Positions 45,572 through 46,235 of a stretch of DNA of 64,000 nucleotides are shown piece by piece. A program made the translations under genes and the position numbers. The notes under the pieces are model-generated. The model saw only the letters and a program-made list of their open reading frames with translations. It ran no database searches and was not told the origin of the DNA. Within the stretch, counting starts at the first letter, position 1. The number at the start of each line of letters is the position of its first letter. The DNA is from Escherichia coli (lineage in GTDB: Bacteria > Pseudomonadota > Gammaproteobacteria > Enterobacterales > Enterobacteriaceae): NCBI RefSeq assembly GCF_003334815.1, contig NZ_QOWO01000001.1. One strand, given 5' to 3'.

Positions 45572-45669
45572 GGTAAAAAAACCTCACTAAAATTATGGTT
45601 ACCAGAATCAGGGCAGTCTTAGGAGTGGCGGCATATAGCCAAAATAACGTGAGCGGGTCCATGCCCGAC

Positions 45670-45820
45670 AGAATCGTTACTCTCTCCCATCCGGACTCTA
45701 ACCGTCGGCCCCGGAATTACACCGGATCTGCTGTCCTTTGAGTTCGCACCCAAAGCGCTCGCGGGCTTTCAACTGAGTTGATTTACCGCCGGTGGGGAAT
45801 TTCGCCCCGCCCTGAGAATA
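45670..45820 (-). ncRNA. sroG: FMN riboswitch (RFN element) in the ribB 5' leader
   Basis: Minus-strand sequence contains the conserved RFN cores GGGCGGGGCGAAATTCCCCACCGGCGGTAAA ... AGCAGATCCGGTGTAATTCCGGGGCCGACGGTTAGAGTCCGGATGGGAGAG, 100-250 nt upstream of ribB. Boundaries approximate. Confidence 0.85.
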
Positions 45821-45944
45821 AGCGGATTCACTATAACGCTAATGATTAGCGGCAGCAACGCATAGCTTCACATAATTCTGGTTTATGACTTACCCTTATC
45901 GCACTACAATGGCACTCAACACCTATCAGTACAGGGAAACTACA

Positions 45945-46235
45945 ATGATTGACCCGAAAAAAATTGAGCAAATCGCTCGCCAGGTTCACGAATCAATGCC
46001 TAAAGGAATCAGGGAGTTCGGGGAAGATGTGGAGAAAAAAATCCGCCAAACCCTACAAGCGCAGCTGACGCGCCTCGACCTTGTAAGCCGTGAAGAGTTC
46101 GACGTCCAAACGCAAGTCCTGTTACGGACTCGTGAAAAACTGGCGCTGCTTGAACAAAGAATCAGCGAACTGGAAAATCGCAGTACTGAGATCAAAAAGC
46201 AGCCAGATCCAGAGACTCTCCCCCCAACGCTGTAA
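45945..46235 (+). CDS. ubiK: Ubiquinone biosynthesis accessory factor UbiK (YqiC, BMFP family)
   Basis: Start set at [21 protein letters not shown] (96 aa), not the longer ORF from 45885; coiled-coil C-terminus. Confidence 0.9.

Follow-up and report, generated by a model that had tools for sequence, protein, structure and literature searches.

On the window, the whole 64,000-nt stretch of Escherichia coli DNA that was analysed, ribB and ubiK face away from each other across a 373-nt intergenic region (45572–45944), and the names of both genes agree between the RefSeq annotations of MG1655 and O157:H7 (Table 1). The minus strand of this region encodes the leader of ribB, which is almost certainly the E. 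coli ribB FMN riboswitch, a cis-acting leader RNA with the gene name sroG. As the first-pass annotation had remarked, the element is invisible in the track of open reading frames, since the ORFs listed over it are spurious and short; the mechanical ORF that starts at 45885 is an in-frame upstream extension of ubiK. A hidden small ORF in the leader was also considered and rejected, three-frame translation giving short, stop-interrupted frames without a conserved peptide. On the other side of the regulated gene, between ribB and zupT, a 64-aa mechanical ORF (44486–44680, minus strand) overlaps the annotated small-protein gene yqiD (171 nt in MG1655; window 44486–44656).

Table 1. Features of the ribB leader and its neighbours, and further RNA matches in the window. 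Leader positions (nt) are counted from the transcript start.
Feature	Position	Strand	Basis
ribB CDS, 217 aa, 3,4-dihydroxy-2-butanone-4-phosphate synthase (regulated gene)	44918..45571	-	ORF; identical to MG1655 b3041
ubiK, 96 aa (divergent neighbour, outside the riboswitch)	45945..46235	+	MG1655 annotation b3042
Putative sigma-70 promoter of ribB	45830..45858	-	-35 TTGCTG 45858-45853, 17-nt spacer, -10 TATAGT 45835-45830, 6 nt to +1
Deduced transcript start +1, G of GCUUAUUCUC	45823	-	Published ribB numbering
FMN aptamer (RFN element, P1-P6), leader nt 1-149	45675..45823	-	RF00050; RefSeq feature on the same 149 bases in O157
anti*-P1 helix, FMN-free state: nt 141-149 (AGAGUAACG) with nt 175-183 (CGUUAUUUU), small hairpin enclosed	45641..45683	-	Published; 9/9 pairs standard
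Platform segment C208-A216 (CUGCCCUGA), complementary to aptamer nt 9-17 (UCAGGGCGG)	45608..45616	-	Complementarity read from sequence
Sequestering hairpin, OFF state: nt 213-225 (CUGAUUCUGGUAA) with nt 248-261 (UUACCAUGAAUCAG), U254 bulged	45563..45611	-	Minimum-energy fold and conservation
naRNA4/CssrE and ES173 matches, listed together	729-805 (both strands), 11775-11845 (-), 62964-63034 (-), 17626-17689 (+)		Rfam scan

The transcript start was deduced from the published numbering of the ribB leader, and 45823 is the sole position where all published features fit: with +1 placed there, C175/G176, the GG at −11/−10 of the pause, U181, the G149:C175 pair and the 141–149/175–183 helix all land on the right bases. 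The ribB AUG is then leader nt 253–255 (45571–45569) and the 5′ UTR is 252 nt long, in agreement with the earlier estimate of a leader of more than 250 nt in an intergenic region shared divergently with ubiK, whose ATG (45945, plus strand) is 121 nt from the ribB +1. The box originally drawn around the element (45640–45945) held up in part: the aptamer, the promoter and the 5′ flank of ubiK lie inside it, but the last 68 nt of the leader (45572–45639, nt 185–252), with the sequestering stem and the Shine-Dalgarno sequence, are missing from it. The transcribed leader starts at 45823 and not at the ubiK boundary, and on the ribB side the functional element reaches past the box to take in the ribB start codon and the first three codons.

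No promoter was called at 45400–46300 by a consensus scan, the ribB promoter having been missed because its −35 hexamer matches at only three of six positions. The arrangement TTGC/TTGA-N17-TATAGT-N6 recurs at a constant distance from GCTTATTCTCAGGGC in about 30 Enterobacterales ribB leaders, with TATAGT almost invariant, and from this we infer both the function and the hexamers of TTGCTG-N17-TATAGT as the putative ribB promoter.

Identity of the element and its genomic surroundings

The whole window was scanned against Rfam 15 at gathering thresholds, and the FMN family (RF00050) matched at 45823..45675 on the minus strand with 120.9 bits against a gathering score of 66.2 (E = 1e-27), covering model positions 1–138 of 138. 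The first-pass annotation had staked its proposal of an FMN riboswitch in the ribB leader on a covariance-model score that did not fall below the family threshold; the score is above it, the downstream gene is ribB, and the feature named “FMN riboswitch” in the RefSeq record of O157:H7 occupies the same 149 bases as the match. The conserved RFN cores that it had quoted were likewise borne out, GGGCGGGGCGAAATTCCCCACCGG (45789–45812) and CCGGGGCCGACGGTTAGAGTCCGGATGGGAGAG (45682–45714) each being present as a single exact copy on the minus strand, with 0 matches to these strings in 100 dinucleotide-preserving shuffles. In a permissive Rfam scan of 45300–46500, AdoCbl-II inside the FMN aptamer (22 bits against 36.5) and mir-132 were rejected as sub-threshold chance matches.

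Window positions 42605–47200 (4596 nt) show 100% identity to E. coli K-12 MG1655 3181500–3186095 (MG1655 coordinate = window coordinate + 3138895). The element is the specific, characterised ribB riboswitch of E. coli, beyond mere membership of the FMN family; it has previously been annotated and characterised experimentally, and nothing in it is new. An FMN riboswitch is annotated by the NCBI pipeline in the E. coli RefSeq records inspected. A 391-nt leader query was found at at least 95% identity in 5426 of 5426 complete E. coli genomes, the leader being at least 99% identical in 5391 of them, and the riboswitch, ribB and ubiK features were all present in the ten records listed from this search (10/10). 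Altogether the leader occupies 5429 places in the 5426 genomes; one of these copies is plasmid-borne, and two copies are present in at least one genome.

Identity to K-12 ends at the junction 47200/47201, exactly at the IS2I site of MG1655 and 1.4 kb from the ribB element. The yqiG fimbrial usher ORF is intact here (837 aa; 47121–49634, plus strand), and in MG1655 yqiG is a pseudogene split by IS2I; with IS2 absent from yqiG, the window is K-12-identical over 4.6 kb, yet it is not the deposited MG1655 at that point. All 12 of the matching genomes listed carry an IS1 or IS3-family element in the yqiG operon, with the 100% identity divided into two IS-split pieces. DNA similarity to O157 ends at 46175 and returns at 51477 (block 46176–51476). 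The last ~19 residues of UbiK (46175–46235) are alike in the window and K-12 and unrelated to those of O157:H7, the GTDB E. coli representative, E. albertii, Citrobacter and Enterobacter, in all of which the tail reads ...PAIPP[VI]D.... The ygiL-yqiGHI fimbrial block appears to abut the 3′ end of ubiK and to have replaced it, and at least 80% of a 4-kb query (46150–50150) is present in 3235 of 5426 E. coli genomes.

Further structured RNAs lie elsewhere in the window. Two tandem, full-length SIB_RNA (RF00113) matches at 54520–54669 and 54895–55044 on the minus strand (147.7 and 142.1 bits) are Sib antitoxin sRNAs, known type I toxin–antitoxin loci, and are presumably the sibD/sibE pair with small ibs toxin ORFs on the opposite strand. 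Four naRNA4/CssrE matches (REP-derived nucleoid-associated RNAs) and one ES173 sRNA (99 bits) also scored above gathering.

The FMN aptamer and related ribB leaders

Transfer of the consensus structure to the window gave six helices, P1–P6, with P1 (nt 3–10 paired with nt 140–147) closing the aptamer. All but one of 28 pairs are standard, the exception being G68/A92 in P4, and only the variable loops of P3 and P4 contain insertions relative to the FMN model. On the minus strand, 103 nt separate the end of the aptamer from the ribB AUG, which places the aptamer in the same-strand leader of a riboflavin gene. FMN binding has been measured on nascent transcripts of this exact sequence, with a Kswitch of 176 ± 19 nM for a P1 probe (P1 3′ strand); a probe of the sequestering stem (strand 218–227) gave 206 ± 28 nM on nascent transcripts, and FMN protection of nt 215–227 is published for the ribB leader (PMC11571811).

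Related leaders were collected with a DNA-pattern scan of one genome per species, in which the AGTCCGGATG motif had to be followed, after 200–230 nt, by the codons for DRENEGD of RibB. The 120 loci obtained, a sample conditioned on an FMN-like leader of similar length, came from Enterobacterales, Aeromonas, Vibrio, Shewanella, Moritella, Rhizobiaceae, some Desulfobacterota and others, with RibB in all. ubiK is found beside ribB in 34 loci, divergent in every one (34/34), with a gap of 366–497 nt and a RibB at least 76% identical to that of E. coli; by their record titles, these loci are Enterobacterales. Of 11 related loci tested, 10 gave an Rfam FMN match in front of ribB, at 77–133 bits. The variable P3 loop of the ribB aptamer is enlarged by ~57 nt in Kluyvera genomosp. 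1 (locus L056, 9880–9940, minus strand) and by ~127 nt in a second locus (L110, 8200–8325, plus strand), insertions which we take to resemble an ERIC/IRU-type enterobacterial repeat (...ACTGGTGTGAGCGAGGGCAGCCAACGCAGC...). The FMN score of L056 remains at 106 bits and that of L110 falls under the gathering score, with promoter, P1, core and platform intact in both.

The expression platform

Beyond the aptamer lies a predicted platform of mutually exclusive helices coupled to P1, which is supported mainly by conservation rather than by covariation, the latter being weak. For comparison of the helices, a MAFFT alignment was made of 79 distinct leaders whose RibB is at least 60% identical; they come from Enterobacterales, Aeromonas, Vibrio, Shewanella, Moritella and some Desulfobacterota.

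The anti*-P1 helix (141–149/175–183) has been published with mutational data and includes the G149:C175 pair (PMC11571811). It shares nt 141–147 with the 3′ strand of P1, its region holds the pause sites C175 and U181, and it is present in the unconstrained minimum-energy fold of the window. Over the 79 leaders it is 70% paired, with six of nine pairs changed on both sides, in an alignment that is unreliable outside enterics.

The sequestering hairpin encloses the Shine-Dalgarno GUGAGG (~45582–45587) and buries the AUG and the first three ribB codons, and it recurs in the minimum-energy structures of the window and of almost every gamma-proteobacterial leader examined. Across the 79 leaders 90.3% of the cells of this stem are paired, against 32–43% for the whole structure with partners slid by 1–3 columns, a pairing that arises almost wholly from sequence conservation, ATGAATCAG being found in 74 of the 79. 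Compensatory changes are limited to one or two sequences per stem pair; in the Sutterella leaders (L077/L047), CUGAUGC...GCAUCAG replaces CUGAUUC...GAAUCAG, which matches a single both-sides change at one stem pair.

An anti-P1 helix is reported to engage the 5′ extremity of the aptamer in the ON state (PMC11571811). Its exact pairs are probably those between CUGCCCUGA and UCAGGGCGG (nt 208–216 with nt 9–17), which would form the anti-P1/anti-sequestor pairing of that state, and nt 221–225 (GGUAA) could additionally pair with nt 3–7 (UUAUU). The 9–17/208–216 complementarity shares nt 213–216 with the sequestering stem. It is 90.6% paired over the 79 leaders, against 27–46% when slid, and G210–C212 are at least 90% conserved despite their position outside the sequestering stem. 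In a covariation test on the same 79 leaders no measure rose above shuffles, a test that cannot confirm anti-P1 because both strands are constrained for other reasons.

Between these elements, nt 150–210 (45614–45674), whose structures are called unsettled by the authors of PMC11571811, contain two small hairpins with stems that vary between Enterobacterales genera yet stay self-complementary, and after them comes a CUCCUAAG block without variation in Enterobacterales. The variable dinucleotide that follows GGAUG at the aptamer 3′ end and the pyrimidine block just upstream of GCCCUGA appear to change together, reading GG/CC in enterics, AA/UU in Aeromonas and AG/CU in Vibrio, Shewanella and Moritella; in 62 of 77 leaders the block is an exact complement, compared with 14% between clades, which amounts to about three clade-level events. 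For the GGGAG/CUCCU extension, native pairs were no stabler than cross-clade pairs (−5.4 against −5.6 kcal/mol). A further ON-state helix in the middle of the leader is a tentative suggestion from these patterns and on balance doubtful; if real, it would extend anti*-P1 into the FMN-binding junction and so refine a known folding pathway, with no new kind of element.

The calculated duplex energies of P1, anti*-P1, anti-P1 and the sequestering stem were −6.6, −6.2, −16.3 and −14.6 kcal/mol, respectively. When folding was constrained, the aptamer state without ligand reached −70.4 kcal/mol compared with −79.8 to −82.7 kcal/mol for the anti-P1/anti*-P1 states, and in the unconstrained optimum (−88.1) anti*-P1 stands alongside the sequestering stem, hence thermodynamic folding alone gives no clean ON state. 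Under unconstrained folding the 271-nt leader was not more stable than shuffled sequence (z = −0.83), which makes overall stability uninformative, and its minimum-energy fold lacks the aptamer structure. An ON state with the 9-bp anti-P1 alone was rejected, nine pairs of the sequestering stem persisting in silico; addition of the nt 3–7/221–225 pairing to anti-P1 freed the AUG in silico, and this extension is not conserved in Aeromonas. The modelled fold energies are consistent with, and do not prove, a switch that depends on energy from the ligand and on kinetic control during transcription.

FMN control of ribB and competing readings

The mechanism proposed for the leader takes FMN binding, the pauses, translational repression and Rho dependence from the literature, and the aptamer match, complementarities, conservation and identity of the locus from the present analysis. 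Transcription from 45823 on the minus strand would first produce the 149 nt that fold into the six-helix FMN aptamer. If FMN is bound while the polymerase is between the pause at ~nt 175–181 and that at ~nt 247, P1 would be locked, and nt 213–225 would be left free to pair with nt 248–261; this pairing would bury the start codon and enclose the Shine-Dalgarno sequence so that no ribosome initiates, and the untranslated, rearranged leader would also permit Rho termination. Without FMN, the strands of P1 would instead be taken by anti*-P1 and by anti-P1 (the aptamer 5′ end with the GCCCUGA region), the sequestering stem would be blocked, and ribB would be translated and transcribed in full. The net effect would be that riboflavin synthesis is shut off when FMN is plentiful.

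Published data place the pauses at C175 and then G176, with GG at −11/−10, at U181, and at 247–249 near the AUG, and the pause at nt 247 sets the limit of the transcriptional window to which FMN sensing is confined (PMC11571811). Earlier experiments have established that FMN, once bound, closes P1 and allows the sequestering stem to form, which hides the Shine-Dalgarno sequence and the AUG and so blocks translation initiation, and that it triggers termination by Rho. In a Rho R66S mutant, transcriptional control of ribB is lost; a Rho termination score of 3.1 was obtained for ribB by ChIP (PMC5499598). In our scan of 45400–46300 no intrinsic terminator was found on the ribB strand in the leader, the one terminator-like site lying inside ubiK on the antisense strand. 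The ratio of C to G is modest at nt 151–225 (1.25–1.3) and highest, at 1.56–1.57, at nt 226–300 over the coding start. The lack of an intrinsic terminator and the excess of C over G at nt 151–300 are, as sequence features, consistent with Rho-dependent termination.

The same C/G profile, modest in the leader and peaking across the coding start, can be turned towards a reading in which the aptamer is real and control purely translational, the drop in mRNA being an indirect consequence of untranslated RNA exposed to Rho or RNases. The AUG-burying sequestering stem is the most conserved feature of the platform, which fits that reading, and such an indirect mechanism has been described for thiM (PMC5499598). 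We nevertheless regard it as improbable, since direct control of Rho termination by ribB, via exposure of a rut site in the riboswitch, is reported in two papers that credit Hollands et al. 2012 (PMC5499598, PMC11571811), and FMN-dependent termination with purified RNA polymerase and Rho, free of ribosomes, is reported in the literature they cite. Our own computations do not separate the direct from the indirect Rho mechanism.

The name sroG reportedly goes back to a stable short transcript in an RNomics screen. The presence of an sRNA gene name at the locus, also used in the name of a reporter plasmid (PMC9204756), together with aptamer bounds (45823–45675) that span 149 nt, would suit a terminated SroG fragment of ~149 nt that acts in trans as a small RNA or as an FMN buffer, with cis control of ribB only part of its role. 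This is very improbable: the fragment has no known trans target and its sequence suggests no seed region, and the aptamer and AUG-sequestering stem are tied to ribB in every locus, an arrangement fully explained by cis function. A chance resemblance, or a decayed and non-functional RFN relic, can be dismissed altogether, as the match exceeds the family threshold by 55 bits over the full model, the leader is at least 99% identical in nearly all complete E. coli genomes, and aptamer and platform are conserved across many genera; no support for such a reading was found. Identification as a cis-acting FMN riboswitch is contradicted by no evidence here.

Compared with the ribB riboswitch of E. coli K-12, the element is without differences, having the same sequence, aptamer, pauses, anti*-P1, sequestering stem and regulated gene. 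The FMN riboswitch of B. subtilis ribD (ribDEAHT) shares the RFN aptamer, ligand, OFF logic and kinetic co-transcriptional sensing (PMC11571811), but it uses an intrinsic terminator/antiterminator where E. coli ribB uses a hairpin that sequesters the AUG and Shine-Dalgarno sequence, and Rho. The E. coli thiM/thiC TPP riboswitches are, like ribB, translational OFF switches that have an anti-P1 and a regulatory pause close to the start codon and that lose mRNA through Rho (PMC5499598, PMC11571811). They differ from ribB in aptamer and ligand, and the action of Rho is indirect via translation inhibition for thiM and direct for ribB (PMC5499598).

The ribB riboswitch is a textbook case with biochemistry more than a decade old, and its recovery has no discovery value; its use is as a positive control, in which a structured RNA was recognised from raw letters and placed correctly relative to the neighbouring genes. 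The RibB enzyme of riboflavin biosynthesis is described as essential, and the ribB riboswitch is a validated antibacterial target of roseoflavin-type and ribocil-type compounds.
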